From: Chlamydiales bacterium
Lineage (GTDB): Bacteria > Chlamydiota > Chlamydiia > Chlamydiales > JAJFMA01
NCBI GenBank assembly: GCA_030679955.1
Contig: JAUXSF010000012.1
Location: forward strand, 22,498-86,497
Length of the DNA stretch: 64,000 nt
Direction of reading: 5' to 3'
Shown: positions 3,034 to 24,388 of the stretch, one piece after another
Numbering within the stretch: the stretch's first letter is position 1
Layout: the number at the start of each line of letters is the position of its first letter
Position numbers and translations under genes: made by a program
Notes under the pieces: model-generated
Databases searched by the model: none
What the model was told of the DNA's origin: nothing
The model's input: only the letters and a program-made list of their open reading frames with translations

Positions 3034-3035
3034 AT

Positions 3036-4640
3036 CTAAAACGTCCTACCTTTAAGCATTAACAATTGCTCGACGATAGGCCCCAAAGACAGCGCAGGGA
3101 AAAATGTGAGCGCTGCGACTATAAAAATAACGCATAGCAGCAATGACGCAAATAAGGGTGTATCAGTTGTGAAGGTCCCTAGAGTTGGCGCTACCTTTTG
3201 CTTACCAGCCAGGCTACCAGCAATGGCTAGACTAGGAATCAATATTGCCAGACGCGTCAAGAGCATAATTAGCCCTAGCGTTACATTGAAGAAGGTCGTG
3301 TTAGCATTTAAGCCAGCGAAGGAACTGCCATTGTTAGCTGCTGCGGAGGTAAAGGCATATAGCATCTCCGACAAGCCATGTGGCCCAGCATTGGTCAAAC
3401 TAGCCAACGCTGTCGGAAGAGACACCGCCACGGCTGATCCCAACAAAATGCACGCGGCTGGAGCAAGCAACGCTAGCATCGTCCATTGCATCTCCCTCTT
3501 TTCGATCTTTTTGCCTAAATACTCAGGAGTCCTTCCTACCATAAGCCCAGACAGAAAAACAGTGAGCAATACGAACATAAGCATACCGCACAACCCTACG
3601 CCAACACCGCCAAAAACGACTTCGCCAATCATCATATTGAACATAGAAACGCCACCAGCCACCGGAGAAAGGCTATCGGACATCGCATTGACGGAGCCAT
3701 TTGATGTAGCTGTGGTCGATGCACTCCAAAGAACACTATCGTATACTCCTAAGCGCACCTCTTTACCTTCCATAGCGGCGACGTTGGAGGCCTCGAAATA
3801 CTCACCAAGGCCCACCCCAGCAAGCCACAGTACAGCCATCACAATAAAAAGCACTATGCCCTGCCTACGAGCTCCAATCATCACGCCATACATATAGGTA
3901 GTGGCGGTAGGAATTAGCAAGATGGCAAAAAGCTCTAGAAAATTCGTCAGCGGGGTCGGATTCTCAAAAGGATGCGAACTGTTAGCATTAAAGTACCCGC
4001 CACCATTGGTCCCAAGCTGTTTAATAGCTACTTGAGAAGCAACCATCCCCATTGGAATCACCTGCTTCTCTCCTTCTAAAGTGACTGCCTCTATATACGG
4101 ACTAGCACTTTGAATGACGCCCTGACTTGCTAACACCACGGCGAAGAGTATCGATAGGGGCAGTAGAACATAAATAACCATGCGCGATAAATCTATCCAA
4201 AAATTGCCAATAGTCTCGGCTCTTTCCTGCCGCAAACCGCGTATCAACGCCAATAAAATAGCATTTCCTGTGGCGGCGCTGACAAAATTCTGCACTCCCA
4301 ATCCGAGAGTTTGGGTAAGGTAGCTCATGGTGGTCTCGCCACCGTAGGCCTGCCAGTTGGTATTAGTTACAAAACTGATCGCTGTGTTGAAGGCCAAAGA
4401 AGGCCCGACACCAGGCAACCCTTGCGGGTTTAAGGGAAGCCAACCCTGAAGTAACTGCAAAACAAATAAAAACAACAACCCAATGCCATTGAAGCATAGC
4501 ATAGCCCTCGCATAGGCACTCCAACCCATACCGGGGGCTGAGCTAGGTTTGTCGAAAACCTTGGCCATGTACGACCCCACTAGAGGTACGCATACCAATA
4601 GAAGAAGAACTAGTAATGCAAATTCGATTCCTCCCTGCAT
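3036..4640 (-). CDS. kdpA: Potassium-transporting ATPase channel subunit KdpA
   Basis: 534 aa polytopic protein with '[24 protein letters not shown]' and '[22 protein letters not shown]' selectivity-filter-like blocks. Sits 2 nt upstream of kdpB. Confidence 0.95.
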
Positions 4641-4642
4641 GC

Positions 4643-4732
4643 TCAGAATTTCTCCGGATGCAGGATTGTGTAGCTAAGATAGATCAGCAAAGCCAATGAT
4701 ATTAGGCCAGCTATTTGGAAGTCCACTTGCAT
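4643..4732 (-). CDS. kdpF: Small hydrophobic subunit KdpF (29 aa; below the ORF-track length cut-off)
   Basis: My translation gives MQVDFQIAGLISLALLIYLSYTILHPEKF. It is a single TM helix ending in the KdpF-like 'L..PE.F' motif, and its stop lies 2 nt before the kdpA ATG. Confidence 0.7.
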   Translation of the reverse strand: MQVDFQIAGLISLALLIYLSYTILHPEKF

Positions 4733-4805
4733 AGCAGTCCCCATAGGTAGAAACTGCTTATGTCATGGCCTGGCTAACCATGCAATAATTTTATTTAAGA
4801 AAAGA

Positions 4806-4886
4806 GACGAGAGGGACATTAGAGACGAAAGGGACATACTGACTACTGTCGCTATGGTCCCTATTGTCTCTAATGTCCCTTTTCCC
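4806..4886. repeat. Intergenic inverted repeat with 9-bp periodic arms (GGGACAT type)
   Basis: Left arm 'gagggacattagagacgaaagggacatac' pairs with right arm 'gctatggtccctattgtctctaatgtccctttt'. Lies between the kdp promoter region and the 3' end of the next gene. Confidence 0.8.
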
Positions 4887-5485
4887 TACGACCGGTAATG
4901 CGCTAATCGGCGCGCAAGGTCATAATTACGAGCTACCTGCTCGGAATGACCAGCCCATTGTTGCATCTGGAAGTGCTTCTCGAAGTTAGGGTAGGTCGGC
5001 AATCTTGCATCTTTAGGAAACAGACCGCAGTCAATACCCTTTTGTGCCATCGCAGCAGCATTTATCGAGTTATGGTACTCGACACGCTCGGCTTCACGCA
5101 CATAATTGGATCTATTGATCTGTCCTGTCGCTGCAAGGTGATCCAAATGATCATACTTGGCCGATACATAAGCATTCTGAAGCTCAAATAGAATAGAGCC
5201 AATCATTGCTCCAGTGCTTTCGTGAAAATCGGGGTTAACGAAAATGATACGGCGATCACAATCCCAGCAAGCTCCAAACTCGCGCGCTGGACCCTCAGCA
5301 TCAGCAGAGAACTTTATAGGGCCCTGCTTCTTTATTTCGTTAATGAACTCACGCGCCTCAGTAAGCTGTTCGATAGTCTTTAAAGATTTCTCCAACCGAG
5401 GTGGACAGTGAATCCCACAAACAGTCGCACTGGATGCCCAGCTAACATGTAATAAACAAATTAACGTTAAGACTGTTTTACGCAT
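4886..5485 (-). CDS. Hypothetical exported protein
   Basis: ORF 4886..5545. I prefer the start at ATG 5485 (MRKTVLTLICLLHVSWASSA, signal-peptide-like), which has a GGAGG 6 nt upstream. No family recognised. Confidence 0.6.
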   Translation of the reverse strand: MRKTVLTLICLLHVSWASSATVCGIHCPPRLEKSLKTIEQLTEAREFINEIKKQGPIKFSADAEGPAREFGACWDCDRRIIFVNPDFHESTGAMIGSILFELQNAYVSAKYDHLDHLAATGQINRSNYVREAERVEYHNSINAAAMAQKGIDCGLFPKDARLPTYPNFEKHFQMQQWAGHSEQVARNYDLARRLAHYRS

Positions 5486-5635
5486 TGTATCCTCCGCTAG
5501 TTGGAATAAGGCTACTAGCATATACCCATATGAATGATTAAGCAATCTTAAAGAGTTTTCTGGAGAGTCCTTGACGTAACGAGTTTATTTCAATTAGAGT
5601 GCGATTTACCTACAAATAACACCGAGACGATCACG

Positions 5636-7078
5636 ATGCGGTTTAAGAGCGCTCTTTCTTTGCTGGCTTTATTTTATATCTTGTCATGCGCATCGTCGAC
5701 GACGAGCCAGATAGTGATACCCGTTACAGCAGAGGAAGTGGCTACCTTCGCTAACTCAACACAGAAAGAAGTGCTCTTCGCGGTAAAATCAGTGGTGTCA
5801 GTGCCTGACAATGAACGAACGTTTTCCAACACAATGAAACCGTGGAATTGCCTCGCTAATGCTCTGTTGGCCTCTTTGAGCACCCTTTATTTTACGGCGG
5901 AAAATAAACTACCATCAGCGGTACAGGCAAAAGAAGCGCTAAATGGTTTGATCGGGTTCCTCTATGGATCCATAGCCCTCAATAAAGATGTGCATCGCGC
6001 ATTTTTGTCTTACGCCGATAAGGCACTAAGTAACCCAGCGTCCATTGATAGCTACCAGATGTATGAACTCAATACTGTCTTGGCAACAGCGCAGGGCTTG
6101 CAGCCAATGCTCTCTAAGGAGCAAAAAGCTACACTGGAACGCTTGGTCACGCTGGCGAGTAAGCAACCCGCCACCCCCTACCTATATAAGAAGGGGCTGG
6201 CCGAGGAAAAAGAACCCGACGGCCCACTGACTGTTCTCAATCTCAACACCTGTTTTCTACCGGGAAAAAACCCTTACTTCCGCGGCGGAGCCAAACCTTG
6301 GGAAGACCGTGTACATCCATTAGCTAACACCATCATTGAACATGACCCTGATATTGTTTGCCTGCAGGAGGTCTTTGCCGAAGATGCCAATGAAGAACTC
6401 TATCAGGCGCTCAAGAACCACTACAGTCACTTCTATATTTCAATCGGAACAAGACCACTAGGTTTTGCCCTTGAGCAACTGGGCCTTCCCAGCGGCCTAT
6501 TGGTCGCTAGTAAATATCCCGTTGAGGCGCCGCGCTTCGCCGTTTTTACCGTCACCGGCACAGCTATGAACTATGGCGTTTTTGACTTTGTTGTTTTAGG
6601 GAGCGAAAAAACACACATCTATACCACACACATGAAATCGCTCGACGAACCTGAATCGCCAGAAACCAGAGCGCTGCAGCTGCAGGAGATCATCGACAAA
6701 GCAGAGGCGGATTTCAGCGTCAGCAATGAAACCACTCCCGCCTTTGTCTGTGGTGACTTTAACATACCTTGGGGAAGGGGCGAGCCAGGAGAAACTCTCA
6801 TCCGCGAAAATTTCACGGACGACTACAACAAAGATCGCAAGGTAGCCGATGCCGATGCTTGTACATGCACAGACTACTATACGGACTACTTCTTTCAGAC
6901 CAATGGCATTCCATTGCGCGTTAACTATAACTTCCAAATTATCGACTATGCACTGCTACTAAAGGCCGATAAGAAACACAAGCTACATACAGAGTTAATC
7001 AGGATGAACCACCTATCCGATCCTACGGAAATCATCACCGACCACAATGCTCTCTTCACCATCATCAGCGAAAACTAA
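5636..7078 (+). CDS. Endonuclease/exonuclease/phosphatase (EEP) family protein, sphingomyelinase-like, with signal/lipoprotein-like N-terminus
   Basis: 480 aa. The N-terminus is 'LLALFYILSCASS'. The C-terminal half carries EEP motifs 'DIVCLQEVF', 'CGDFNIP' and 'ITDHNALF'. The first ~190 aa form a helical domain of unknown family. Confidence 0.75.
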   Translation: MRFKSALSLLALFYILSCASSTTSQIVIPVTAEEVATFANSTQKEVLFAVKSVVSVPDNERTFSNTMKPWNCLANALLASLSTLYFTAENKLPSAVQAKEALNGLIGFLYGSIALNKDVHRAFLSYADKALSNPASIDSYQMYELNTVLATAQGLQPMLSKEQKATLERLVTLASKQPATPYLYKKGLAEEKEPDGPLTVLNLNTCFLPGKNPYFRGGAKPWEDRVHPLANTIIEHDPDIVCLQEVFAEDANEELYQALKNHYSHFYISIGTRPLGFALEQLGLPSGLLVASKYPVEAPRFAVFTVTGTAMNYGVFDFVVLGSEKTHIYTTHMKSLDEPESPETRALQLQEIIDKAEADFSVSNETTPAFVCGDFNIPWGRGEPGETLIRENFTDDYNKDRKVADADACTCTDYYTDYFFQTNGIPLRVNYNFQIIDYALLLKADKKHKLHTELIRMNHLSDPTEIITDHNALFTIISEN

Positions 7079-12900: not shown

Positions 12901-13782
12901 TTAACTATTAACTCTAGACTTTGCTTTTGCGGCGGAGCCGCTACGAATAATGATGACACCAGCAATGACGACCAGGACAACGCCCACTAAGTCTATCCAG
13001 GCTGGGATGATCCCCCAGAACATCCAGTCGATCAAACCAACAAACACTACCGATGTATATTGATAGACGCCTACTTGAGAAGCCTCGGCATAGGCGTAGG
13101 CTCTGACCAGCGACATTTGTGCGACCATCAGCGATGCACCGGCTAGCACAGCGAACATAAAGTCGTGCGTGCTTAAGACCGGTCCAGCCACCGACAAGAA
13201 AGGCAACTGTATTAACGCTGCAATAAAAACAAAGTAAAACGCGATACGATTATGCGACTCCGTCTCGGTAAGCACTTTGACCATCAAGTAAGCGCCCGCT
13301 AGCGCGATACCAGACCCCAGGCCGTAGAAATCTCCAATATGATCAAATATCGATAATGTAGGCTTGATGATGAATGTAATACCTATAAAACCCAACGCAA
13401 TCGCCAACCATGTTCTAAGTTCAACATGTACCTTCAAAAACATTGTCGCCATAATCGGAATAAACAACGGCGATGAATTAAACAATAACGTCGCATTGAC
13501 GATAGGTATTTTTTGCATCGATAGCAGATAAAGTGATGTTGCCGATAGGCCTATAGCGGCACGGAAAAAGTGTTTAAATGGATGCTTAGTCTTAAAAGAT
13601 TCCACACCCTCACGAAGCATAAAGGGCAACATCAGCAAGGTGGCAGTAATATACATCACCACACTTGTCCAGATCTCATGCCCATCCCTAGTCGCCATTT
13701 TGGTGAAGACACCGAGCAGAGCCATGCTAAAGAAGCATAGAACAGCGTACAGGCTTCCCTTGACGAGGGTGGAATGAGCCAT
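12901..13782 (-). CDS. DMT superfamily (EamA-like) transporter
   Basis: 293 aa with about 10 predicted TM helices in a two-EamA-repeat layout. Its start shares a 1-nt overlap (13782) with the stop of the upstream bicupin gene. Confidence 0.8.
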   Translation of the reverse strand: MAHSTLVKGSLYAVLCFFSMALLGVFTKMATRDGHEIWTSVVMYITATLLMLPFMLREGVESFKTKHPFKHFFRAAIGLSATSLYLLSMQKIPIVNATLLFNSSPLFIPIMATMFLKVHVELRTWLAIALGFIGITFIIKPTLSIFDHIGDFYGLGSGIALAGAYLMVKVLTETESHNRIAFYFVFIAALIQLPFLSVAGPVLSTHDFMFAVLAGASLMVAQMSLVRAYAYAEASQVGVYQYTSVVFVGLIDWMFWGIIPAWIDLVGVVLVVIAGVIIIRSGSAAKAKSRVNS

Positions 13783-14795
13783 TAGCCCCCTCCGGATATC
13801 ACCAACACATCGCGTTGATGCCTAGGCATATCCGCCAGCAAGCTTGGGTCGATGTTGAAGCTTGAAGCGATTACTTCGTCCGAATAGGCTCCAAAACATC
13901 CCGAAAGCCCGATGTCCGACGGTGCTGTATTGCTAAAAAATATAGCAAAGTGCGCTTCGTCTGGTCCTGTGTTTTCGATGTAGTGGATATATCCTTGCGG
14001 CAAAAAGCTCATATCGCCAGCTTTCATGTCAAAAGTCTCCACAGCACCATTAGGAGACAACAACGTAATCCTAGCTGTGCCACGAGTTAGATAGTTCAGT
14101 TCGTTAGCATTAGGGTGCCAATGCGGCTCTCTGGCCCCTTTGGGCTTTAACAAAACAGCATAAACGGCAAGCTCGTCTAAAGTAGACATAAGAAAGCGGT
14201 TGCTCATCTTTACCCAGCCACCCAGGGTGCTCACCTGAGGCGAAGAGTCTTCCAGGCTTAGCTTGTAACGGTTTGTCATGAAGGGCAGCGTTGGCGCTAG
14301 TTTAGCTTTTACTTCACCGATGAAGGTGTCCGCATGGTTTTTTGTATTCTTGTCGTAAAAGAGCTTGGAGTTACCTGCCGTCTCCGCCAATATGTGCGAC
14401 GGCATAACAGCGACGCTGCGACTAAGATCTAAATCCTCTGGATCCTCATGACTAAAGCATAGGACCATTTTTAGAGGTACATCGCCGGTATTTTCAATGT
14501 GATGCATGTATCCGATCGGTACAAAGGCTATAGCTCCAGGCTCAATAGTGAAAGTATCATGATTATTGCCATGACCAAAGATAGTCATGAGCCCGCGACC
14601 CTCTGTACAGTAGCTCAGCTCGTGCGCATTCGGATGCCAATGCGGCTCCCGAACGGCTCTAGGGTTGAGCTCTAAGAGCGACAATGACATGCCTTTCAGG
14701 GAGGGAAGCTGCTCGACACGAGCGTCAATACGCTGACCTCCCCCACGAACGACCTTAGGCGCTTGTGAACCGATTGGATAATAATGCTGCATCAT
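13782..14795 (-). CDS. Bicupin protein (oxalate decarboxylase/oxidase-like)
   Basis: 337 aa with two cupin motifs: 'REPHWHPNAHELSYCTEGRG...IGYMHHIEN' and 'REPHWHPNANELNYLTRGTA...QGYIHYIEN'. Confidence 0.8.
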   Translation of the reverse strand: MMQHYYPIGSQAPKVVRGGGQRIDARVEQLPSLKGMSLSLLELNPRAVREPHWHPNAHELSYCTEGRGLMTIFGHGNNHDTFTIEPGAIAFVPIGYMHHIENTGDVPLKMVLCFSHEDPEDLDLSRSVAVMPSHILAETAGNSKLFYDKNTKNHADTFIGEVKAKLAPTLPFMTNRYKLSLEDSSPQVSTLGGWVKMSNRFLMSTLDELAVYAVLLKPKGAREPHWHPNANELNYLTRGTARITLLSPNGAVETFDMKAGDMSFLPQGYIHYIENTGPDEAHFAIFFSNTAPSDIGLSGCFGAYSDEVIASSFNIDPSLLADMPRHQRDVLVISGGG

Positions 14796-15220
14796 TTCTT
14801 CCCCGGAATAGGAGTTAAATTAGCATGGGCCGCCCACTTCCATGTATCGCCTACCTTCTGCCATACGCTTTGACGATAGGTTGGGCTGCCCTTAACAATT
14901 CTTTGATTATCAATCGTTTCCGCAACGATGATTTTGTAGGAAACAGTCAATAAGCCAGGACCTTCTGTTGATCTAAAATCAGATAATTCGTAGCTACTAA
15001 CATTCAATGTTTTAAGTAGCATGATCTCTTGACCACGTGTCCTAGGGCCATCTGTATGTATTGATTGAAAGGACTGGGCCATTTTCTGCTGCACCATTGG
15101 CCAATTGCGATCCTTGAAATTAGCCCATAGCTCTTTCTCAAGTCTCTCACCCTCTGCAGGATCGGCTGAAAGAGTCAGCGGTAAACACGCTAACAGCGCC
15201 ACGAGAATGATCTTAAACAT
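14792..15220 (-). CDS. Exported NTF2-like (SnoaL/DUF4440-like) protein
   Basis: 142 aa with signal peptide 'MFKIILVALLACLPLTLSA'. Size and pattern fit an NTF2-like fold. 4-nt overlap with the bicupin gene. Confidence 0.5.
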   Translation of the reverse strand: MFKIILVALLACLPLTLSADPAEGERLEKELWANFKDRNWPMVQQKMAQSFQSIHTDGPRTRGQEIMLLKTLNVSSYELSDFRSTEGPGLLTVSYKIIVAETIDNQRIVKGSPTYRQSVWQKVGDTWKWAAHANLTPIPGKK

Positions 15221-15328: not shown

Positions 15329-16114
15329 ATGCGCTTAAAACTCTTATTCGTTTTGGTTCTTCACTGCCTTACTCTACATGCATCTACCAATGAATACCTA
15401 GACCTTATGCACCGCTACCCACAAACATTGGGTCCGCTGGGAGATGCCTCCAAAGGGGAGATAGAAATCACGCTAGATCTGAACGAAATTCGCGACATAC
15501 AGCTAGCCACAGGTCGCCAGGTAGGCATCGTCGCTCAAGACAACTACTGGATTTGGATCAACGACGCTTGCCACTTCCCCAATGGCAGAAAAGGTGTCTA
15601 TGGACGCATCGCATGGAAAAGAAGACTCTCCGACTTTGTTGGCGCCGCAGCCATGCCCATGCTGCCGGACGGACGCATCGTTATGAATTTAATGTTCCGC
15701 CATTCGACTCGCTGTTGGGAAGTGGAGCTTCCACGTGGCATGGCTGAAGCTGGCGAAACAGTCGCCGAAGCAGCAGCTCGCGAAGCACGTGAAGAAACAG
15801 GAATGGTTGTTAGTAATCTAGTACGCTTGGGCGATATAGCCTCTGACACTGGCATCAGCGGCACCACGGTCCCTATCTTCCTAGCTCAAGTCACAGACCA
15901 AGTAACTACAGAAAGAGACGATGCAGAAGCCATCGAAGATGTTTTTGCCATGAGCATCCCAGAAATAAAGGCAGCCTTCGTAAAGGGCTACTACGAAACG
16001 GAAATCAATGGCAAAAAGATCACCGCACGCTTCCGCGACCCTTTCCTAGCTTATGGAGTCTTGCTCTATGAGGCTATTAATGGGCAAAACGATGAAATGG
16101 ACCTAAAGAGGTAA
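15329..16114 (+). CDS. Nudix hydrolase with N-terminal signal peptide
   Basis: Nudix box 'GMAEAGETVAEAAAREAREETG' (Gx5Ex7REUxEExGU). The N-terminus 'MRLKLLFVLVLHCLTLHAS' looks like a Sec signal. Confidence 0.8.
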   Translation: MRLKLLFVLVLHCLTLHASTNEYLDLMHRYPQTLGPLGDASKGEIEITLDLNEIRDIQLATGRQVGIVAQDNYWIWINDACHFPNGRKGVYGRIAWKRRLSDFVGAAAMPMLPDGRIVMNLMFRHSTRCWEVELPRGMAEAGETVAEAAAREAREETGMVVSNLVRLGDIASDTGISGTTVPIFLAQVTDQVTTERDDAEAIEDVFAMSIPEIKAAFVKGYYETEINGKKITARFRDPFLAYGVLLYEAINGQNDEMDLKR

Positions 16115-16152: not shown

Positions 16153-16190
16153 GGAATATTCCTCATTTGGAATATACATTGAAAGGAATA
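16153..16190. promoter_or_regulatory. Candidate operator upstream of the ArsR-family gene: three GGAATA hexamers at exact 16-bp spacing
   Basis: GGAATA occurs at 16153, 16169 and 16185. The first is part of the perfect palindrome GGAATATTCC. The site lies 27-64 nt upstream of the ATG at 16217. Confidence 0.3.
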
Positions 16191-16216: not shown

Positions 16217-16582
16217 ATGAAACTCATCCAAATATACGAATGCCTGTGCGATGAAACCCGCCTGCGCATTCTAAACTTATTGCAGATCACGCCACTGTGC
16301 GTTTCACATCTGCAAAAGATTCTAGAAATCCCTCAGGTAAAGGTCACAAAGCACTTAGCCTACATGAGAGAACGCGGAATGGTAGAAGCTACTCGTCACG
16401 AGAATTGGATGCTCTACACATTATGCAGAAGCGCTTCTAGTGAACTTGATACCAACCTAAAATGCCTCCAGGATTGCAGTAAAGACTATGCAATCTTCAA
16501 TAGCGACATGAAACGGTTGAAAAACATGCACCAAGAAATAGCTGAAGTAATTCAAAATGCTCAAATAAAGGTAAAAAAATGA
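16217..16582 (+). CDS. ArsR/SmtB family transcriptional regulator
   Basis: 121 aa with 'IYECLCDETRLRILNLLQITPLCVSHLQKIL', a winged-HTH layout. Cysteines occur at 'CLC' (N-terminal), 'LCV' (alpha3 region) and 'KCLQDC' (C-terminal). Confidence 0.85.
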   Translation: MKLIQIYECLCDETRLRILNLLQITPLCVSHLQKILEIPQVKVTKHLAYMRERGMVEATRHENWMLYTLCRSASSELDTNLKCLQDCSKDYAIFNSDMKRLKNMHQEIAEVIQNAQIKVKK

Positions 16583-17292
16583 AGTGGATGCCAATCCTCG
16601 CGCTAATGTGCGCTTTCATGATGTGCGGAGACCTATCCGCCGACAATGAAAGATACCAATATCTGCTATTTTACAAAGAGCAGGACGAAAGCACATCCCA
16701 AATGCAGCAAACGCTTAAGCATGCTTTAGCTAAACTAGGAGACAAAGCCTCCTCCGTAGAAATTGACGTCAGCGACCCCTCTAATGACGATATTGTGAAA
16801 GCCTACAATCTCAGAAGATCCCCCATGCCTCTCATACTAGTCATAGCGCCCAATGGCGCCATCGCCAGCGGCTTTCCATTGAAAGTAACAGAGGAAAATC
16901 TGTTAAGCGCAGTGATGACGGAAGCTATGGCAGACACCCTCAAGGCACTGCAAAACCGTCGCTTGGTGCTTTTAAGCGTACAGAACCATCGCACAAGCAA
17001 GAATAGCGAAGCTATCGCAAGTGCTAAAGCGTTTCAAACTGACCCACGCTTCTCAGCCGCCACCGAAACGATATTCATTGATTCATCGAACCACGAAGAG
17101 CAAGCATTCCTAAAGCAACTTGGAGTCGATCCCACTACACCGGTAGCGATGACAGTGGTGATAGCTCCCCCGTCCAAAGTAGTTGGCAAGTACGAAGGTA
17201 GTTTTGATAAGGACGCTCTAATTTCTGATCTAAAAAAGGCATCGACAGGCTGCTGTCCTGGCGGCTGCTGCAACGGCTGCTGCTGCCATTAG
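16579..17292 (+). CDS. Exported protein: two thioredoxin-like repeats (no CxxC) plus a C-terminal poly-cysteine tail
   Basis: Signal peptide 'MKWMPILALMCAFMMCGDLSA'. Internal duplication: 'IDVSDPSNDDIVKAYNL..P..LVIAPNG' versus 'IDSSNHEEQAFLKQLGV..P..VVIAPPS'. Ends in 'GCCPGGCCNGCCCH'. ATGA overlap with the arsR-family gene. Confidence 0.75.
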   Translation: MKWMPILALMCAFMMCGDLSADNERYQYLLFYKEQDESTSQMQQTLKHALAKLGDKASSVEIDVSDPSNDDIVKAYNLRRSPMPLILVIAPNGAIASGFPLKVTEENLLSAVMTEAMADTLKALQNRRLVLLSVQNHRTSKNSEAIASAKAFQTDPRFSAATETIFIDSSNHEEQAFLKQLGVDPTTPVAMTVVIAPPSKVVGKYEGSFDKDALISDLKKASTGCCPGGCCNGCCCH

Positions 17293-17302
17293 GAGGCATT
17301 AA

Positions 17303-18523
17303 ATGAAGTGGACACAATTAGTTTTTAGCGAATTGCTACAACGAAAAAACAAGCTGATAACCAGTGCTTTGGCTATCACCCTTGGCGTGGCAGTCATCGT
17401 GATGATTAACAGCATCACAACGTACTCCGAAAAAGCCATTTCTAAGGAATTGGATGCCCTCGGGGCCAATATCTTGATCCTACCCCAAGGCACAGCCCTT
17501 GTGGATTATTATAGTGCAGATTTACAGGACTCCGAGATACCAGAGGAGTATGTCACCCTATTGGCAACTTCCGATCTGGAAGGATTGGACAACCTTTCAC
17601 CCAAGCTGTCTGTGCCTGTCGTGGTCAATGGCGAAAGTTTAACCCTCACCGGCATACTGCCCAAGAATGAGTTCCAAAGTAAAACCTGTTGGCAAGGAGC
17701 TGGCATCTTCTCGCGCCCAAAAACCTGCGGCGATGTGGATGACATCTTCGGCTTTAGCAAGAAGACTCCGGAAGCGGTCCTGGCGCGTAAACGCGTCATC
17801 GAAACGTTAGAGTCCAACGAAGTGCTAATTGGCTCAGAAGTAGCCTCTGCACTCAATTTGATCGAGGGAAGTCAACTTACTCTTTTGACCAAAGTTTTCA
17901 ATGTGTCAGCTGTTCTGCCCCAGACCGGCACCATCGATGACTCACGTATCTTTGCCCACCTTCACAGCGTGCAAGCCTTGACGGGCAAGGAATCCGTGGT
18001 AAATGCCATAGAGGTTGTAGGATGCTGTGAACAAATCTCCAAAGGCCTCGTAGGTAAAATTGGCACACTATTGCCTGGCACTAAAATCGTCACCATCACC
18101 CAAGTAGTAGACACGCAAGTGCGCACGAATGAGCTCATGAGAAACCTCTCGAAGCTCTTCCTCGTGATCATCTTGGTTGTCGGCGGAGCGAGCATAGCCA
18201 ACGATATGTACAACAATGTGTACGAACGGCGGAGAGAGGTAGGAACTTTAGTAGCTTTGGGAGCTAGTTCAAATACAGTCCTTAAGGTGTTTCTCACCAA
18301 AGCATTGATTCTAGGGCTAGTGGGAGGAATTGCTGGCTTCGTTCTAGGTACTCTGATTGCTGTTATCTGCGGCCCCCTACTAGCTGGTGTGCCGGTACTA
18401 CCGATTCCACAGCTCTTAGTATCTTCTGTAGCGTTGTCTGTAGCCATTACTCTATTGGCAAGCTATTTTCCAGCTCGTTATGCAACGCGCTTAGACCCTA
18501 GTATTGTTCTTCAGGAGGTTTAG
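17303..18523 (+). CDS. ABC transporter permease, FtsX/MacB type
   Basis: 406 aa. TM1 is followed by a large (~240 aa) extracytoplasmic domain and three C-terminal TMs (FtsX domain). AGGAGG lies 6 nt upstream of the start. Confidence 0.85.
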   Translation: MKWTQLVFSELLQRKNKLITSALAITLGVAVIVMINSITTYSEKAISKELDALGANILILPQGTALVDYYSADLQDSEIPEEYVTLLATSDLEGLDNLSPKLSVPVVVNGESLTLTGILPKNEFQSKTCWQGAGIFSRPKTCGDVDDIFGFSKKTPEAVLARKRVIETLESNEVLIGSEVASALNLIEGSQLTLLTKVFNVSAVLPQTGTIDDSRIFAHLHSVQALTGKESVVNAIEVVGCCEQISKGLVGKIGTLLPGTKIVTITQVVDTQVRTNELMRNLSKLFLVIILVVGGASIANDMYNNVYERRREVGTLVALGASSNTVLKVFLTKALILGLVGGIAGFVLGTLIAVICGPLLAGVPVLPIPQLLVSSVALSVAITLLASYFPARYATRLDPSIVLQEV

Positions 18524-18525
18524 AT

Positions 18526-19185
18526 ATGCTTACAGTAAAAAATCTTAGCAAAGTTTACCAAAAGCGCGGTCAAGAAGTGATAGCGCTTAACAATGTATCG
18601 CTAGATATTCCTCAGGGAGACTTTGTAGCGATCATAGGTCCCAGTGGCAGTGGTAAAAGTTCCCTCTTGCTAATGCTAGGGGGTATGCTCTCACCATCCA
18701 GTGGGTACGTCCGTATAGACAACGAATCGGTATACGACCTGAACAATAATGCCCGTGCTACTTTACGTCGTCAGAAGATGGGTTTTGTCTTTCAAACTTT
18801 TAACCTTATTCCCTACCTGACCGCGCTTCAAAATGTGCAAGTACCTTTACTCCTTTGTGGTCTTGATAAACAGGAACAGGATGAACGTTCTAGGGCACTA
18901 TTGAAAAAGGTGGGTCTAGAAGATCGCCTAGATCATAAACCTGCTGAACTTAGCGTGGGACAGCAACAACGTATCGCGTTGGCTCGTATGATGGCTAATG
19001 ATCCTGACATTATCCTGGCCGATGAACCAACTGGAAATTTAGACCCAACAATGGGACAAATCGTCATGGATTTTCTATGTGAGCTTAATGAAGCGGGTAA
19101 GACAGTTGTGATGGTGACACATGACATGAAGATTGCTGGTCGTGCTAAACGCACTGTAGTTATTTCCAAAGGTGGCACGCTCTAA
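18526..19185 (+). CDS. ABC transporter ATP-binding protein (MacB/LolD-like)
   Basis: Walker A 'GPSGSGKSS', signature 'LSVGQQQR', Walker B 'IILADEPTGNLD', H-loop 'VTHD'. Confidence 0.93.
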   Translation: MLTVKNLSKVYQKRGQEVIALNNVSLDIPQGDFVAIIGPSGSGKSSLLLMLGGMLSPSSGYVRIDNESVYDLNNNARATLRRQKMGFVFQTFNLIPYLTALQNVQVPLLLCGLDKQEQDERSRALLKKVGLEDRLDHKPAELSVGQQQRIALARMMANDPDIILADEPTGNLDPTMGQIVMDFLCELNEAGKTVVMVTHDMKIAGRAKRTVVISKGGTL

Positions 19186-19189
19186 TAAG

Positions 19190-19222
19190 AGAGACACAGG
19201 GCGCCTTGGCGCCTCTGCGTCT
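19190..19222. terminator. Hairpin between convergent genes (short member of the CGCAAAG palindrome family)
   Basis: 'agacacagggcgcc tt ggcgcctctgcgtct', followed by 'ttgcgttaaaat', which matches the arm consensus of the elements at 21391, 24389 and 44907. Confidence 0.5.
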
Positions 19223-19237
19223 TTGCGTTAAAATACC

Positions 19238-19630
19238 CTACTTGTTTTCGCAGCTACCCTTATCACAGCAGCTTTGCTCGAAGAAGTGGGCTACCTTAGC
19301 TTTGAAATCATCGCACTGCTTATGTTGGCCAAGCTTATGCTTCCAACGGTCAGCATTAGCATCCGCTACAATAGCAGCTAGCTCGTCCAAGCGTCCGCCA
19401 CTTTTAGCAATAATGCGTTCTTTAATTTTTTCGTGAAGCACTTCCATCCAAGCTTCATCAGCCATTTCAATGAGCTCATCAGTAAAATGGCACTCTTCGT
19501 GTTCCGAACCACAACTCTTAGAATGACACTGGCAGTTACAACAGCCACCACAACAACCTGACTTATCATGGTGATGATGCTCTCCACCGCCTGAACCGCA
19601 TCCTTGTGTACCACAATGATCGTGTCCCAT
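19238..19630 (-). CDS. Cytosolic His/Cys-rich putative metal-binding protein
   Basis: 130 aa. N-terminus 'MGHDHCGTQGCGSGGGEHHHHDKSGCCGGCCNCQCHSKSCGSEHEECH', then a helical domain, then the C-terminal 'SCCDKGSCENK'. No signal peptide. Confidence 0.75.
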   Translation of the reverse strand: MGHDHCGTQGCGSGGGEHHHHDKSGCCGGCCNCQCHSKSCGSEHEECHFTDELIEMADEAWMEVLHEKIKERIIAKSGGRLDELAAIVADANADRWKHKLGQHKQCDDFKAKVAHFFEQSCCDKGSCENK

Positions 19631-21513: not shown

Positions 21514-22266
21514 ATGCTGTTGGCACTGTTAGGCGCTTTAGCTGTCGGTCTATGCTTAGGGCTATTAGGCTCTGGGGGGTCCATTCTAACCCTTCCGGTC
21601 CTGCTATACCTTGTTCAAAGACCAGACAAGCTCGCCATTGCGGAATCGCTGGCGATTGTGGGAAGCATCGCTCTATTCGGCGCTGCTAGTTACGCGGTCA
21701 AACGACAGGTAGATTGGAAGAGCGTCACCTTCTTCGGCCTTACAGGTATGGTCGGAGCCAATTGCGGAGCTTTCTGCGCATGCTACGTCAGCGGCACGAC
21801 CCAAATCACACTCTTTGCCTGTGTCATGATTGTTGCTGGATATATGATGCTCTCCGACAAAACACCGACGTTCAACAGAGAAATGCCGCCGCGCTCAACA
21901 AAATTGCTGATGGTCAATGGCTTTCTGGTTGGCACGCTGACTGGCCTTGTGGGGGTCGGTGGTGGCTTCTTAATCGTACCAGCGCTTGTACTTGTCAGCG
22001 CTCTGCCTATGCATATTGCTGTGGGAACTAGCCTGGTTATTATAGCCATGAATGCCCTTAGCGGCTTCTTTGCACACTTACCAGATCTTTCGACGCGTCA
22101 AATGGAAATCGATTGGCAGATAATAGCGCTCTTCGCCTCAATCGGCATCGTCGGAACGCTTATAGGAAGCGCTATGAGCGGTAAAATTCCACAGCAACGT
22201 CTGAAGCAAGGCTTCGCCCTGTTCATCATTCCAGTAGCTCTTTACACGCTCATCCGCGGCGTCTGA
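21514..22266 (+). CDS. TauE/SafE family sulfite exporter-like membrane protein
   Basis: 250 aa with about 8 TMs. Duplicated 'G..G(S/V)GGG(S/F)(I/L)..P.L' motifs typical of TauE/SafE. Confidence 0.85.
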   Translation: MLLALLGALAVGLCLGLLGSGGSILTLPVLLYLVQRPDKLAIAESLAIVGSIALFGAASYAVKRQVDWKSVTFFGLTGMVGANCGAFCACYVSGTTQITLFACVMIVAGYMMLSDKTPTFNREMPPRSTKLLMVNGFLVGTLTGLVGVGGGFLIVPALVLVSALPMHIAVGTSLVIIAMNALSGFFAHLPDLSTRQMEIDWQIIALFASIGIVGTLIGSAMSGKIPQQRLKQGFALFIIPVALYTLIRGV

Positions 22267-22268
22267 TC

Positions 22269-22919
22269 TTATGGTTGCGGTGTGATGCGTAAATAAGGCT
22301 TCACTTCCTTAAAGCCTTTTGGAAACCGCTCAGCAAGCTCTTTGGGGTCTGTAATACTTGGAAGAATAATGCAATCCTCCCCCTTAGCCCAATTCACAGG
22401 TGTCGCCACTTTGTGCTTATCTGTCAGCTGCATGGAATCTAACACACGCAGTACTTCTTCAAAATTACGTCCTGTCGATGCCGGATAGATCATCATCAAA
22501 CGTATTTTCTTGTTCGGATCGATGATGAATACTGAACGAACGGTGGCAGTGTCGCTAGCCTGAGGGTGAATCATGCCGTACAGATTCGCTATGGCCTTAT
22601 TGGGATCAGCAATCATTGGGAAAGCCACCTGACAATTCTGTGTTTCGTCGATGTCTTTCTTCCATTTTTGGTGGTCATCGAGTGAGCTGACACTAAGCGC
22701 AATCGTCTTCACACCGCGTTTATCAAACTCCGACGTAACCCTTGCGGCATATCCCAATTCTGTTGTACATACTGGTGTAAAATCCTTTGGATGCGAAAAA
22801 AAGACGCACCAAGATTGACCCAACCACTCGTGGAAGCGGATGGGACCCCAAGTAGTCTCCGCTTCAAAGTCTGGCGCAATATCACCAAGTCGTAGATGTG
22901 CTGTAGCTGAGCTTTGCAT
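22269..22919 (-). CDS. Peroxiredoxin, 1-Cys (Prx6-like)
   Basis: 216 aa with 'FSHPKDFTPVCTTEL' peroxidatic Cys motif and the Prx6-type C-terminal extension. Confidence 0.9.
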   Translation of the reverse strand: MQSSATAHLRLGDIAPDFEAETTWGPIRFHEWLGQSWCVFFSHPKDFTPVCTTELGYAARVTSEFDKRGVKTIALSVSSLDDHQKWKKDIDETQNCQVAFPMIADPNKAIANLYGMIHPQASDTATVRSVFIIDPNKKIRLMMIYPASTGRNFEEVLRVLDSMQLTDKHKVATPVNWAKGEDCIILPSITDPKELAERFPKGFKEVKPYLRITPQP

Positions 22920-22931
22920 ACTTTCTCCGGT

Positions 22932-24317
22932 TTAAGATTTTACAACAGGAAGATGGGCGTCTCTCCACTCGTTAATGCCACCATGCAAGTGGGACACGTT
23001 CTTAAAGCCTTTATTAAGCAATATGGAGGCAGCAATAGACGAACGCATACCGCTGCGACACATCGTCACGATCTTCGCGTTACGCGGAATCTCATCTAAC
23101 GCCGCGGAATCGGCTAATTTGAACAGTTCAATGTGCATAGCATTTTCCAAATGTCCCTCTTCCCACTCCTGTGGAGTTCTCACGTCGACAATAAACACAT
23201 TCGCACCAGCATTTTGCACTAATCCATGGAGATCGTTGGGTTTTAGAGCAGGTAGCGTACTTAGAGGATTAACTTCCTTTGAGTGGTCCCATACATTAAA
23301 GGTGACCTCAAGATTACCAGCTAAGACGGAAAATAGATTACGAACAAATTCTTTATCCTCAACGCTGGGGATTATAGCAGTTATAGCATTTTCCCCTCTG
23401 TATACTCCTGCTAGCCAAGAGCCTGTTGAAGGAGAACCTAACGGCACGTTTATTGCTCCTGTGCGGTGAGCTTCACCAAAATCGATAGGGCTTCGAAAAT
23501 CATATATCGTATTAGCCATCTGATTATCTCCTACGCTTTCAGGATCTGCTGTAGACAGTTCGTCTATCAAGCAAGCCCCTTCTATGTTGATTTTTTTATT
23601 TCGTGTAAAGGTTTCGGGTTTGGCAGGCACATCTTTTTGTAACTCCCTTGCCCAAAGATCCTTGTCATGCCATTGAAAGGCTGGATTAGTTTGGCGTTCC
23701 GTCCCCAGTGTAGAGCTATCGCCAGAGGCTATACTCTTGCTGCAAAGGGAGCCTGGCCCATGCGCTGGGTAAATCGTTAAACTGTCTGGCAAATGAGAGA
23801 TGCGTTCAAAAAGGCTGCGGTGAAGCTCTGATAGCAAGGTCTCCGTCATCTCATCACCTAACAGGTCAGGCCTGCCAACGCCGCCAATTAGCAAAAAATC
23901 ACCTGTGAATGCGGCTATAAGCGCCTCGCCTTCATAGCATAGCCAGGTCAGATGCTCGGGCGTATGACCTGGAGTATGTAGTGCCTTTAGCTTTACCTGT
24001 CCGATGGATATGTCATCGCCATTGTGCACTGCCACATCAGCATATTTCGGTAACCAGGCTTTGCCACCTTCAACAGAGCAGTAGATCTTCGGTTGTCCTT
24101 GAAAGAGATGCTTGAGCTCTTTAGCGCCGGAAACAAAGTCGGCATGTACATGTGTCTCTAAGACAGCTTTCAAAGTCAAGTTTTGGGATTTTATATAATC
24201 CGCAACGGGAGCAGCCACTCGAACAGGATCAATCACCGCACATTCCTGTGTCGTTGGATCTATCACCAAATAAGTACGAACAGATAACGGCTGATACACG
24301 AAGGTCTTAAGACGCAT
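22932..24317 (-). CDS. Persulfide dioxygenase (MBL fold) fused to rhodanese domains (CstB/PRF-like)
   Basis: MBL motifs 'THVHADFVSG', 'HTPGHTPEH', 'GDFLLIGGVGRPDL' and 'PAHGPGS'. C-terminal rhodanese with active-site loop 'MCRSGMRSS'. ATG 24317 is preferred over GTG 24326. Confidence 0.88.
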   Translation of the reverse strand: MRLKTFVYQPLSVRTYLVIDPTTQECAVIDPVRVAAPVADYIKSQNLTLKAVLETHVHADFVSGAKELKHLFQGQPKIYCSVEGGKAWLPKYADVAVHNGDDISIGQVKLKALHTPGHTPEHLTWLCYEGEALIAAFTGDFLLIGGVGRPDLLGDEMTETLLSELHRSLFERISHLPDSLTIYPAHGPGSLCSKSIASGDSSTLGTERQTNPAFQWHDKDLWARELQKDVPAKPETFTRNKKINIEGACLIDELSTADPESVGDNQMANTIYDFRSPIDFGEAHRTGAINVPLGSPSTGSWLAGVYRGENAITAIIPSVEDKEFVRNLFSVLAGNLEVTFNVWDHSKEVNPLSTLPALKPNDLHGLVQNAGANVFIVDVRTPQEWEEGHLENAMHIELFKLADSAALDEIPRNAKIVTMCRSGMRSSIAASILLNKGFKNVSHLHGGINEWRDAHLPVVKS

Positions 24318-24388
24318 GTAGCACACTTCCTATGATCACCAATATTGTTGTGATCATGGCACACGGAAAGAAAACTTAACAAGAATAA

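Follow-up and report, generated by a model that had tools for sequence, protein, structure and literature searches.

We describe a four-gene cassette in a 64-kb stretch of DNA (the window) from a Chlamydiales metagenome-assembled genome (MAG). It encodes an ArsR/SmtB-family repressor, an exported protein of two thioredoxin (Trx) folds that ends in a poly-Cys tail, here called TrxL, and the permease and ATPase of a type VII ATP-binding cassette (ABC) system. At roughly even odds (about 0.5), we read it as a metalloid-inducible, autoregulated envelope detoxification module for trivalent arsenicals or similar thiophilic species. The folds are all known; without a described counterpart, in the libraries and literature that we searched, is their combination, a type VII motor with a periplasmic Cys triad, joined to a dedicated poly-Cys double-Trx partner and an ArsR and residing among ars and hgcAB genes. 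Judged from sequence, three thiolates appear to recur in each of three proteins (TrxL, permease and ArsR).

The four-gene cassette

The genes at issue, with their positions in the window and strand, are these.

16217-16582, + strand: arsR, 121 aa, ArsR/SmtB-family repressor (open reading frame (ORF) list, Pfam and NCBIfam)
16579-17292, + strand: TrxL gene, 237 aa, exported double thioredoxin-fold protein (AlphaFold2 (AF2) and Foldseek)
17303-18523, + strand: permease gene, 406 aa, type VII (MacB/LolC-like) ABC permease (Pfam)
18526-19185, + strand: ATPase gene, 219 aa, of the type of LolD, FtsE and the MacB nucleotide-binding domain (NBD) (ABC_tran)
19238-19630, - strand: His/Cys-rich gene, 130 aa, convergent, judged to lie outside the cassette

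The arsR and TrxL genes overlap by 4 nt (ATGA), gaps of 10 nt and 2 nt separate TrxL from the permease gene and the permease gene from the ATPase gene, and the space between the ATPase gene and its convergent 130-aa neighbor contains a weak bidirectional hairpin. An earlier note on this DNA, made from the sequence alone, had given exactly these coordinates and spacings for the four co-directional genes and the convergent one, and the peptide strings that it quoted (YECLCDE, PLCVSH, KCLQDC, GCCPGGCCNGCCCH and a 48-residue His/Cys N-terminus) are all present in the ORF translations. Pfam and NCBIfam bear out the families it assigned to the ArsR, to the FtsX-type permease with its large periplasmic domain and to the ATPase; its description of the second product as an exported, CxxC-less two-thioredoxin protein with a poly-Cys end agrees with AF2, Foldseek and the Cys positions. 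It had also stated that no HlyD-type adaptor or outer-membrane factor gene is attached, and there is none among the window neighbors of the cassette, which therefore lacks the gene adjacency of a MacAB-TolC-type system.

Conservation across genomes

Loci were gathered by a scan of one genome per GTDB species, seeded with a 14-sequence TrxL alignment (A2) by way of the motif APNGAITGG; the 60 loci returned are biased to sequences that keep this motif. Their ORFs were called mechanically by six-frame translation and searched with the window proteins by phmmer. The order TrxL-FtsX-ABC is constant in essentially all of the 60 loci that have enough DNA, with permease E-values between 1e-110 and 1e-195. 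The arsR gene is directly upstream of this core in Chlamydiota and some others, and directly downstream of the ATPase gene in most Planctomycetota. When the search was reversed, starting from three permease homologs, TrxL and ArsR adjoined in 3/3. Since the gene order recurs in about 55 loci, the arrangement is far beyond chance, and what the earlier note saw in one contig proves, by the scan and the three reverse look-ups, to be conserved as a unit in many genomes.

Most of the loci are from Planctomycetota (Gemmataceae, Pirellulales, Planctomycetaceae, Isosphaeraceae, Thermoguttaceae, Phycisphaerae and Brocadiaceae). The others are from Chlamydiota, Sumerlaeaceae (Sumerlaeota), Eisenbacteria, Krumholzibacteriia, Desulfobacteraceae, Gammaproteobacteria, Nitrospirales, Armatimonadetes and Bacteroidetes, so that the span is about 10 phylum-level groups. 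No description of the cassette, of the tail motif or of an FtsX/MacB-type ars transporter was found in Pfam or NCBIfam, in the source names or in the full-text literature searched; nor does any curated family, source name or paper that we found describe the pairing of ArsR with MacB-type and poly-Cys proteins, which the earlier note had called unrecognized.

The permease has no PLSDB plasmid match at E<=1e-40. At one locus (L069, 1-15221) the cassette is accompanied by a divergent arsC-arsR pair and an ArsM-like methyltransferase, and has an ISL3 transposase, a Bro-N gene and TraG-like genes around it, neighbors which suggest that the cassette can travel on mobile elements.

Arsenic and hgcAB neighborhood

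Neighbor ORFs of the loci were clustered and the cluster representatives scored against NCBIfam. At least one of acr3, arsM, arsC, arsA and arsD lies within 8 kb in 30 of the 60 loci, though many loci are truncated. The recurrent families are listed with the number of loci and the scores of their representatives, which exceed the NCBIfam cut-offs save for ArsC and ArsD (below equivalog level) and the DUF318-type permease.

ACR3 arsenite efflux protein: 19 loci (TIGR00832, 450 bits)
ArsF-family proteins: 12 loci (NF040494, 96 bits against a cut-off of 60)
ArsM: 11 loci (NF008823, 278 against 263)
ArsC of the low-molecular-weight protein tyrosine phosphatase type: 11 loci (best TIGR02689, 85 bits, below the cut-off of 158; Pfam LMWPc)
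ArsG-family permeases: 7 loci (NF040495, 232 against 200)
ArsA: 4 loci (TIGR04291, 779 bits)
ArsD-AhpD fusions: 4 loci (weak partial ArsD match, NF033727, 27 bits against 90)
DUF318 / SO_0444-type permeases: 4 loci (below cut-offs, 110 against 300)
ArsE/MTH895 thioredoxins (TIGR00412)

In several loci the ars linkage looks operonic. In L034, L030, L044, L005 and L068, acr3, arsR or arsC is on the strand of the cassette and overlaps or adjoins its genes: the ABC gene is followed by an overlapping ACR3 gene in the two chlamydial loci L034 and L068, the order ABC-ArsR-ACR3 with overlaps is found in L030 and L044, and L005 reads ABC-ArsR-ArsC-ACR3. The soft-metal or metalloid role suggested in the earlier note is thereby narrowed towards arsenic, the context (ars islands in half of the loci, hgcAB in six) being strongly suggestive.

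Bona fide hgcA is present in six loci, five with full-length genes scoring 413-460 bits and one (L003) with a partial gene at 327, against a cut-off of 275; hgcB accompanies it wherever hgcB was detected. In four Planctomycetota loci (L007, L008, L009 and L040) hgcA(B) is co-oriented with, and directly upstream of, the genes TrxL-TrxL-FtsX-ABC-ArsR, and in the Bacteroidetes locus L058 hgcA(B) and the cassette fall within 4 kb. The spans of hgcA(B) plus cassette, in positions of each locus, are as follows.

L007: 4297-11151
L008: 4703-10595
L009: 4457-10627
L040: 5780-11895
L058: 7842-13677

The HgcA of L008 carries an N-terminal ArsE/MTH895 thioredoxin-like domain, for which the longer HgcA ORF of L040 gave no match. 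That hgcAB occurs near arsR, acr3, arsC and arsM has been published already (PMC7438021; PMC10349881; bioRxiv 10.1101/2022.10.17.512643); the cassette is unmentioned in these three papers.

Two further gene sets were noticed in these neighborhoods. One recurs upstream of hgcA or of the cassette (L008, 209-4645; L009, 1391-4428; L026, about 1500-5500; L040, 3134-5360) and consists of two ArsF-family thioredoxin-like proteins, an ArsG-family permease, a Tat-signal C_GCAxxG_C_C protein with CxxCH heme motifs and a Cys-rich protein of about 150 aa that has no family assignment (cluster c25); this ArsF/ArsG/C_GCAxxG_C_C set may be a further organo-metalloid module. The other is a second MacAB-like system right beside the cassette in four loci (L010, about 3500-6450; L043, 870-2805; L048, 3417-7704; L004, 245-3000), made up of a different FtsX permease, an ATPase of its own and a HlyD-type adaptor. 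The adaptor family (membrane fusion protein) is found in only 6 of the 60 loci, and in L010, L043 and L048 it abuts this second, different FtsX/ABC pair. The second systems could be there by chance or could offer a route across the outer membrane.

TrxL

The 237-aa protein is identical to the NCBI entry 'hypothetical protein Q8K75_03405'. Pfam gives a weak Thioredoxin_6 match (29.4 bits against a cut-off of 27), and neither Pfam, NCBIfam nor Foldseek places the protein in a characterized non-metal family, a result that favors the earlier note. An AF2 model built with 34 homologs has a mean predicted local distance difference test (pLDDT) score of 89.3 and a predicted template modeling score (pTM) of 0.82, falling below a pLDDT of 50 at residues 232-237. 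It contains two Trx folds, and its best Foldseek matches, at probability 1.0, are double-Trx structures: the Pyrococcus protein disulfide oxidoreductase (PfPDO, 1a8l), the bb' domains of protein disulfide isomerase (PDI, 4ju5) and the N-terminal domain of AhpF. Its parts are as follows, all on the + strand.

16579-16641 (about residues 1-21): Sec-type leader, from the hydrophobic N-terminus of the AF2 model
about residues 26-110: Trx-like domain 1 (AF2)
about residues 129-223: Trx-like domain 2 (AF2)
17248-17289: C-terminal poly-Cys tail TGCCPGGCCNGCCCH, 7 Cys in 14 residues, predicted disordered

The redox-active CxxC or CxxS that a thioredoxin carries at the N-terminus of helix 1 is lacking. 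Both Trx domains of the window protein are free of Cys, and the family alignment has none at the CxxC position; two cysteines are in the leader and seven in the tail, so that the tail holds the only cysteines of the mature protein. The APNG and APPG loops are invariant in both domains in that alignment.

At least 120 homologs were found by word search, almost every one with (C)CPGG or CGPGG repeats at its end, and a profile search of 1.84 billion representatives (50% clustering) returned 993 at E<=1e-3 and 750 at E<=1e-10. The tail that the earlier note expected to see in orthologs, if its proposal held, is there: (C)CPGG or CGPGG repeats with at least 3 Cys in the last 32 residues are kept in 78 of 91 homologous ORFs, and most of the remaining 13 are truncated. 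The minimal tail, which is also the commonest in Planctomycetota, is CGPGGCGPGGC, with 3 Cys; chlamydial tails double the Cys as CCPGGCCPGGCC. TrxL is tandemly duplicated in 28 of 59 loci, and some homologs have an uncleaved N-terminal membrane anchor. CCPGCC is the standard, optimized biarsenical-binding tag (PMC3665623).

The tandem Trx-fold architecture is common to TrxL, PDI b-b', Pyrococcus PDO and the AhpF N-terminal domain, and the b and b' domains of PDI lack CxxC as both TrxL domains do. TrxL differs from these proteins in being bacterial and periplasmic, shares only 10-18% identity with them and is alone in having the (C)CPGG-repeat tail.

Permease and ATPase

The permease has four transmembrane (TM) helices and an FtsX domain (PF02687, 64.6 bits against a cut-off of 25.5). 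Between TM1 and TM2 lies a periplasmic domain of about residues 41-275 (17423-18127), and MacB_PCD (PF12704) matches residues 20-229 at 41.9 bits (cut-off 27). In the AF2 model (overall pLDDT 73.6) residues 56-264 form a beta-rich domain between the long stalk helices of TM1 and TM2. A PDB profile search with the permease returned MacB, Spr0694-5, LolF, LolE, LolC and YtrF, with matches to the TM domains of MacB, LolE, LolC and FtsX, that of MacB being nearest by sequence (5lil, E 3e-23); by fold, Foldseek puts full-length LolE closest, then full-length MacB, then Spr0694-5 and HrtB. The family comprises at least 2189 clusters (90% identity) at E<=1e-60, under generic names only, such as 'ABC transporter permease'; the best 120 matches listed have 61-75% identity to the query.

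The companion protein scores 124.7 bits for ABC_tran, and Walker A (GPSGSGKS), the signature (LSVGQQQR), Walker B (ILADEPT) and the H-loop (VTHD) are intact in its translation. The nearest NCBIfam models are LolD, MacB and FtsE, all below equivalog cut-offs (LolD, TIGR02211, 228.7 bits against 307.75; MacB, 220 against 966); the pair has the cognate LolD/MacB/FtsE-type NBD of a type VII ABC system. Membership in LolCDE is not indicated, given these LolD scores, a lolCE score (TIGR02212) of 56.3 against 362 and the single permease gene. Because there is only one permease gene, the permease is expected to be a homodimer.

Three cysteines stand out in the permease, all within its periplasmic domain.

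17726-17728, + strand: codon of C142, in the conserved periplasmic loop motif FSRPxxCG
18023-18028, + strand: codons of the vicinal pair C241-C242, in the periplasmic motif IEVVGCC

C142 is Cys in 93% and the C241-C242 pair in 96% of 45 locus orthologs, and all three are invariant in 31 database orthologs (alignment A3). The loop that holds C142, residues 126-165 (17678-17797), has W130, G134, F136, P139, C142 and G143 invariant in the database orthologs, and is the only long stretch that the AF2 monomer leaves unplaced (pLDDT <50). High conservation of a segment that AF2 does not place fits a loop that becomes ordered only on binding of a ligand or partner, or on dimerization. We had considered this loop as an equivalent of the LolC 'Hook' and dropped the idea, since the register of the hidden Markov model (HMM), in which query residue 171 aligns with about residue 145 of LolE, puts the Hook nearer residues 190-205.

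Regulator and candidate operator

The first gene product has a winged helix-turn-helix of the ArsR type: HTH_5 (PF01022) scores 41.2 bits against a cut-off of 22, the ArsR/SmtB metalloregulator model NF033788 59.8 against 55, and the PDB matches are HlyU, CzrA and ArsR-family proteins. Its cysteines are at positions 9, 11, 28, 70, 83 and 87. We aligned it with 43 cassette-adjacent ArsRs (44 sequences in all). C28, in PLCVSH, falls on the first Cys of the ELCVC motif (Cys32 of R773 ArsR) and is Cys in 44/44. The position of R773 Cys34 is Cys in 41% of the sequences (full ELCVC) and is S30 in the window ArsR; C83 and C87 are Cys in 59%; and an extra C-terminal Cys, often within GGCCP, is found in 91% and is missing from the window protein.

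The known As(III)-responsive ArsRs rely on three-coordinate Cys sites, which arose several times and at differing positions (type 1, C32/C34/C37; type 2, C95/C96/C102; type 3, C15/C16/C55), with vicinal Cys pairs in the sites of AfArsR and CgArsR (PMC11868830). The window ArsR has the winged helix and the Cys32 equivalent in common with the As(III) sensors R773, AfArsR, CgArsR and ArArsR, and many partner ArsRs in orthologous loci have ELCVC, a C-terminal GGCCP or both, as in those sensors. Unlike them it has Ser in place of Cys34 and lacks both an equivalent of Cys37 and a C-terminal CC; its Cys set (9, 11, 28, 83, 87) is not an exact match to any of the four described site types. A site of three sulfurs (S3) could possibly be formed by C9/C11 with C28, or by C28 with C83/C87.

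Upstream of arsR is a candidate operator.

16155-16176, unstranded: inverted repeat AATATTCC-N6-GGAATATA, 41-62 nt upstream of the arsR start codon

The window sequence at 16153-16176 is GGAATATTCC-tcattt-GGAATATA. The form TATATTCC-N6-GGAATATA is also upstream of arsR in three more chlamydial loci (L034, L056 and L042), where the flanking DNA is otherwise unalignable, and the GGAATATA arm is invariant in the four-way alignment of these chlamydial arsR upstream regions (A4). A repeat kept amid unalignable flanks is the phylogenetic footprint of a likely operator, and this one is likely to be that of ArsR.

Proposed mechanism

Type VII ABC proteins such as MacB, LolCDE and HrtBA do not carry their substrates across the inner membrane; their periplasmic domains move at the expense of ATP, and substrates in the periplasm or outer leaflet are thereby extracted or expelled. 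Acr3, ArsB and ArsP move As(III) or methylarsenite (MAs(III)) only into the diderm periplasm. As(III) prefers a ligand set of three thiolates, and the same thiolates would bind Hg(II), Cd(II) and Cu(I). In the mechanism that we propose, ArsR would bind the TATATTCC-N6-GGAATATA repeat upstream of its own gene and leave the DNA once a thiophilic trivalent species occupies its cysteines, the sensing site being invariant C28 plus C9/C11 or C83/C87. As(III) or methylarsenite would be the most likely inducer, with Sb(III), Hg(II) and methylmercury (MeHg) possible. Derepression would yield TrxL, the permease and the ATPase. TrxL would be a Sec-exported, redox-inactive double-thioredoxin scaffold whose flexible tail of (C)CPGG repeats serves the periplasm as a thiolate trap or chaperone, and the homodimeric MacB/Lol-like permease, with its cytoplasmic ATPase partner, would offer one three-Cys site (C142 and C241-C242) per periplasmic domain.

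The TrxL tail would capture the trivalent species and pass it by thiol exchange to the Cys triad of the permease, whence ATP-driven mechanotransmission, as in MacB, LolCDE and HrtBA, would force its release. In this way As(III) that Acr3 has exported or that arrives from outside would be cleared from the periplasm and from the inner membrane's outer leaflet, and the relay would complement Acr3, whose As(III) reaches the periplasm only. Transfer in reverse, from permease to TrxL as from LolCDE to LolA, is equally compatible with the data; the ligand, the contact between TrxL and permease, the way in which transfer runs and the place where the toxicant ends up are what we infer here. With no adaptor or outer-membrane channel gene and with TrxL as constant partner, a periplasmic thiol relay is the best-supported model.

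Comparison with known systems

The proposed relay can be set beside several systems. LolCDE-LolA is closest in structure: LolE and LolC are the best structural matches of the permease (Foldseek E about 5e-18, TM-score about 0.6), and both systems have a four-TM FtsX permease whose periplasmic domain is set between TM1 and TM2, a separate LolD-like ATPase and a dedicated soluble periplasmic partner, encoded or required. That partner is the beta-barrel LolA in one case and a double-Trx protein with a Cys tail in the other. The cassette differs further in its single permease gene and its invariant periplasmic Cys triad, and is an ArsR-regulated accessory unit linked to ars islands, whereas LolCDE is essential housekeeping.

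MacAB-TolC supplies the TM domain most similar by sequence, and MacB_PCD is common to MacB and the cassette permease. MacB takes periplasmic substrates, including a small Cys-rich peptide toxin. In contrast to MacAB-TolC, the cassette NBD is a separate polypeptide, and no HlyD adaptor or TolC-like gene is found in the window, nor any consistently in the 60 loci. The heme extruder HrtBA (7w7a and 7w78 among the Foldseek matches) is, like the cassette, an adaptor-less type VII system, and it removes a toxic small molecule that partitions into membranes; HrtB has neither a Cys triad nor a periplasmic partner, and is regulated by HssRS or HrtR, not by ArsR.

In MerP-MerT and ArsD-ArsA a small Cys-bearing carrier hands a thiophilic ion to Cys pairs of its partner by ligand exchange, MerT and ArsD using vicinal Cys-Cys. 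The chemistry is in concept that of the proposed relay, and the genes for ArsD and ArsA are beside the cassette in four loci. The cassette has no sequence or fold relationship to MerP, MerT or ArsD, and its relay, unlike theirs, would run in the periplasm with a type VII ABC motor coupled to it.

Weighing the alternatives

Several points weigh against an arsenical detoxification module. The window itself contains none of acr3, arsC, arsM, arsA, arsD, arsF, arsG and hgcAB (tblastn over its 64 kb with all neighbor families), so that for this organism the arsenic link rests wholly on orthologs elsewhere. Its ArsR has no full As(III) site of type 1, 2 or 3 in the alignment and is not close to any characterized sensor in the NCBIfam and PDB searches. 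In the permease, the C142 loop is modeled at low confidence, which bears on whether the three cysteines cluster as we suppose, and since periplasmic cysteines may be oxidized, triad or tail could instead be structural disulfides. To our knowledge type VII ABC systems do not handle metals or metalloids, and the cassette encodes no outer-membrane exit route. The ORF calling by six-frame translation was crude, and the loci are mostly MAGs and mostly of one phylum (Planctomycetota), so that their counts are not phylogenetically independent.

The same architecture might instead have a soft metal as its ligand, be it Hg(II), Cd(II), Cu(I), Zn(II) or Pb(II), or else MeHg; TrxL would then be a metallothionein-like periplasmic buffer that the ABC system resets or empties. 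We think this unlikely. Poly-Cys tails and vicinal Cys pairs bind Hg, Cd and Cu besides As, hgcAB is directly upstream in the four Planctomycetota loci and nearby in the Bacteroidetes one, and the window offers neither a canonical As(III) site in its ArsR nor ars genes; the N-terminal CxC of that ArsR together with a Cys in alpha3 resembles the Cd/Pb/Zn-sensing sites of the CadC type. The recurrent neighbors, however, are arsenic-specific (the ACR3, ArsM, ArsC, ArsA/ArsD and ArsE/F/G families), no mer, cad, czc or cop family came up to the recurrence threshold in the neighbor clustering, and the partner regulators with the ELCVC arsenite motif make up 41%. A reactive-sulfur role, which the earlier note had also raised, draws less support than arsenic. 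Here ArsR would be a two-Cys persulfide sensor like BigR or SqrR, and the tail would carry or buffer sulfane sulfur, or form a periplasmic pool of reductant, serviced by the ABC system. The best-conserved ArsR cysteines (C28 at the ELCV position, with one or two more, C83/C87, in the C-terminal helix) recall the geometry of such sensors; BigR models match weakly, at 24-47 bits, and a TauE exporter, a metallo-beta-lactamase-rhodanese fusion and a 1-Cys peroxiredoxin are encoded 2-5 kb downstream in the window. But the BigR scores are far under the cut-off of 155 bits and always below those of generic ArsR models, families of sulfide:quinone reductase, persulfide dioxygenase and rhodanese do not recur beside the cassette in the 60 loci, and the sulfur genes of the window are split from the cassette by prfC and not conserved with it. 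We judge a sulfur function improbable.

There is also little to recommend, in our judgment, protein handling in the manner of Lol or FtsEX with no direct binding of metal, in which the motor extracts, releases or activates TrxL or a client of TrxL as a chaperone like PDI bb', the cysteines form structural disulfides or act as a tag for sorting or anchoring, and the link to ArsR reflects no more than general envelope-stress regulation. LolE/LolC and MacB are indeed the nearest structures, type VII ABC systems typically act on proteins that are periplasmic or membrane-anchored, or on lipids, Trx domains without CxxC are classic client-binding modules, and some TrxL homologs keep an uncleaved membrane anchor at the N-terminus. 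Such a role sits poorly with scores far under the equivalog cut-offs (lolCE 56 against 362, LolD 229 against 308), and it leaves unexplained why a tail of at least three Cys, the periplasmic triad and a Cys-bearing ArsR co-occur in ars islands of about ten phyla. The odd number of conserved periplasmic cysteines also argues against a purely disulfide role.

Implications of the arsenical reading

Known arsenic resistance ends at the inner membrane, and we know of no mechanism by which the periplasm is protected or emptied. If our reading as an arsenical detoxification module is true, the cassette would be a new mechanistic class both for the ars repertoire and for the type VII ABC family, and metagenomic surveys of arsenic and mercury cycling would gain a set of marker genes. 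More tentatively, and rating it less likely than not, we suggest that it is the first dedicated periplasmic chaperone and motor for arsenic or thiophilic metalloids, an ATP-driven thiol relay beyond the diderm inner membrane, and in Planctomycetota and Bacteroidota also an envelope partner of HgcAB for MeHg or methylarsenicals. Such a partnership would tie the unexplained native role of HgcAB to a detoxification pathway of the arsenic type; the cassette downstream of hgcAB is a testable candidate for the handling of the methylators' product or for that native role. The (C)CPGG repeat, as a natural thiol tag, may serve biosensing or bioremediation.

The His/Cys-rich neighbor and other genes of the window

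The earlier note had included the convergent 130-aa His/Cys-rich protein with the operon, and this part of its proposal did not hold. The protein has no homolog in any of the 60 cassette loci. Its family, with no Pfam or NCBIfam assignment, has only 17 homologs, seemingly restricted to chlamydial metagenomes; in three of them, on contigs of 18-43 kb, the contexts are chlamydial and unrelated (upstream of the nuo operon, among BON-domain genes, and beside an oligopeptide ABC transporter). Its stretch GCCGGCCNC resembles the TrxL tail as peptide only: its codons are not those of the tail (TGT against TGC), and as DNA the two align with a score of 12, below the best of 500 shuffles (13). We therefore rejected it as a fifth component of the cassette. 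The family combines a conserved helical C-terminal domain (ELIEMADEAWMEVLHEKIK...RWKHK) with a hypervariable His/Cys N-terminus, and the protein may have a function of its own in the cytosol, as a metal buffer or chaperone.

The cassette is followed in the window by this gene, prfC and TauE. Beyond prfC, 2-5 kb downstream of the cassette, the genes at 21514-24326 have the look of a sulfur or oxidative-stress cluster, which is not kept beside the cassette in other loci.

21514-22266, + strand: TauE/SafE exporter
22269-22919, - strand: 1-Cys peroxiredoxin
22932-24326, - strand: fusion of metallo-beta-lactamase fold and rhodanese, persulfide dioxygenase-like

Upstream, the neighbors are NUDIX, DUF4440, bicupin and EamA genes. 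The bicupin gene (13782-14795, - strand) and the next gene, for a DUF4440 protein with a signal peptide (14792-15220, - strand), overlap stop to start. The 261-aa NUDIX hydrolase (15329-16114, + strand) has an N-terminal signal-like hydrophobic leader, which is unusual among NUDIX enzymes.

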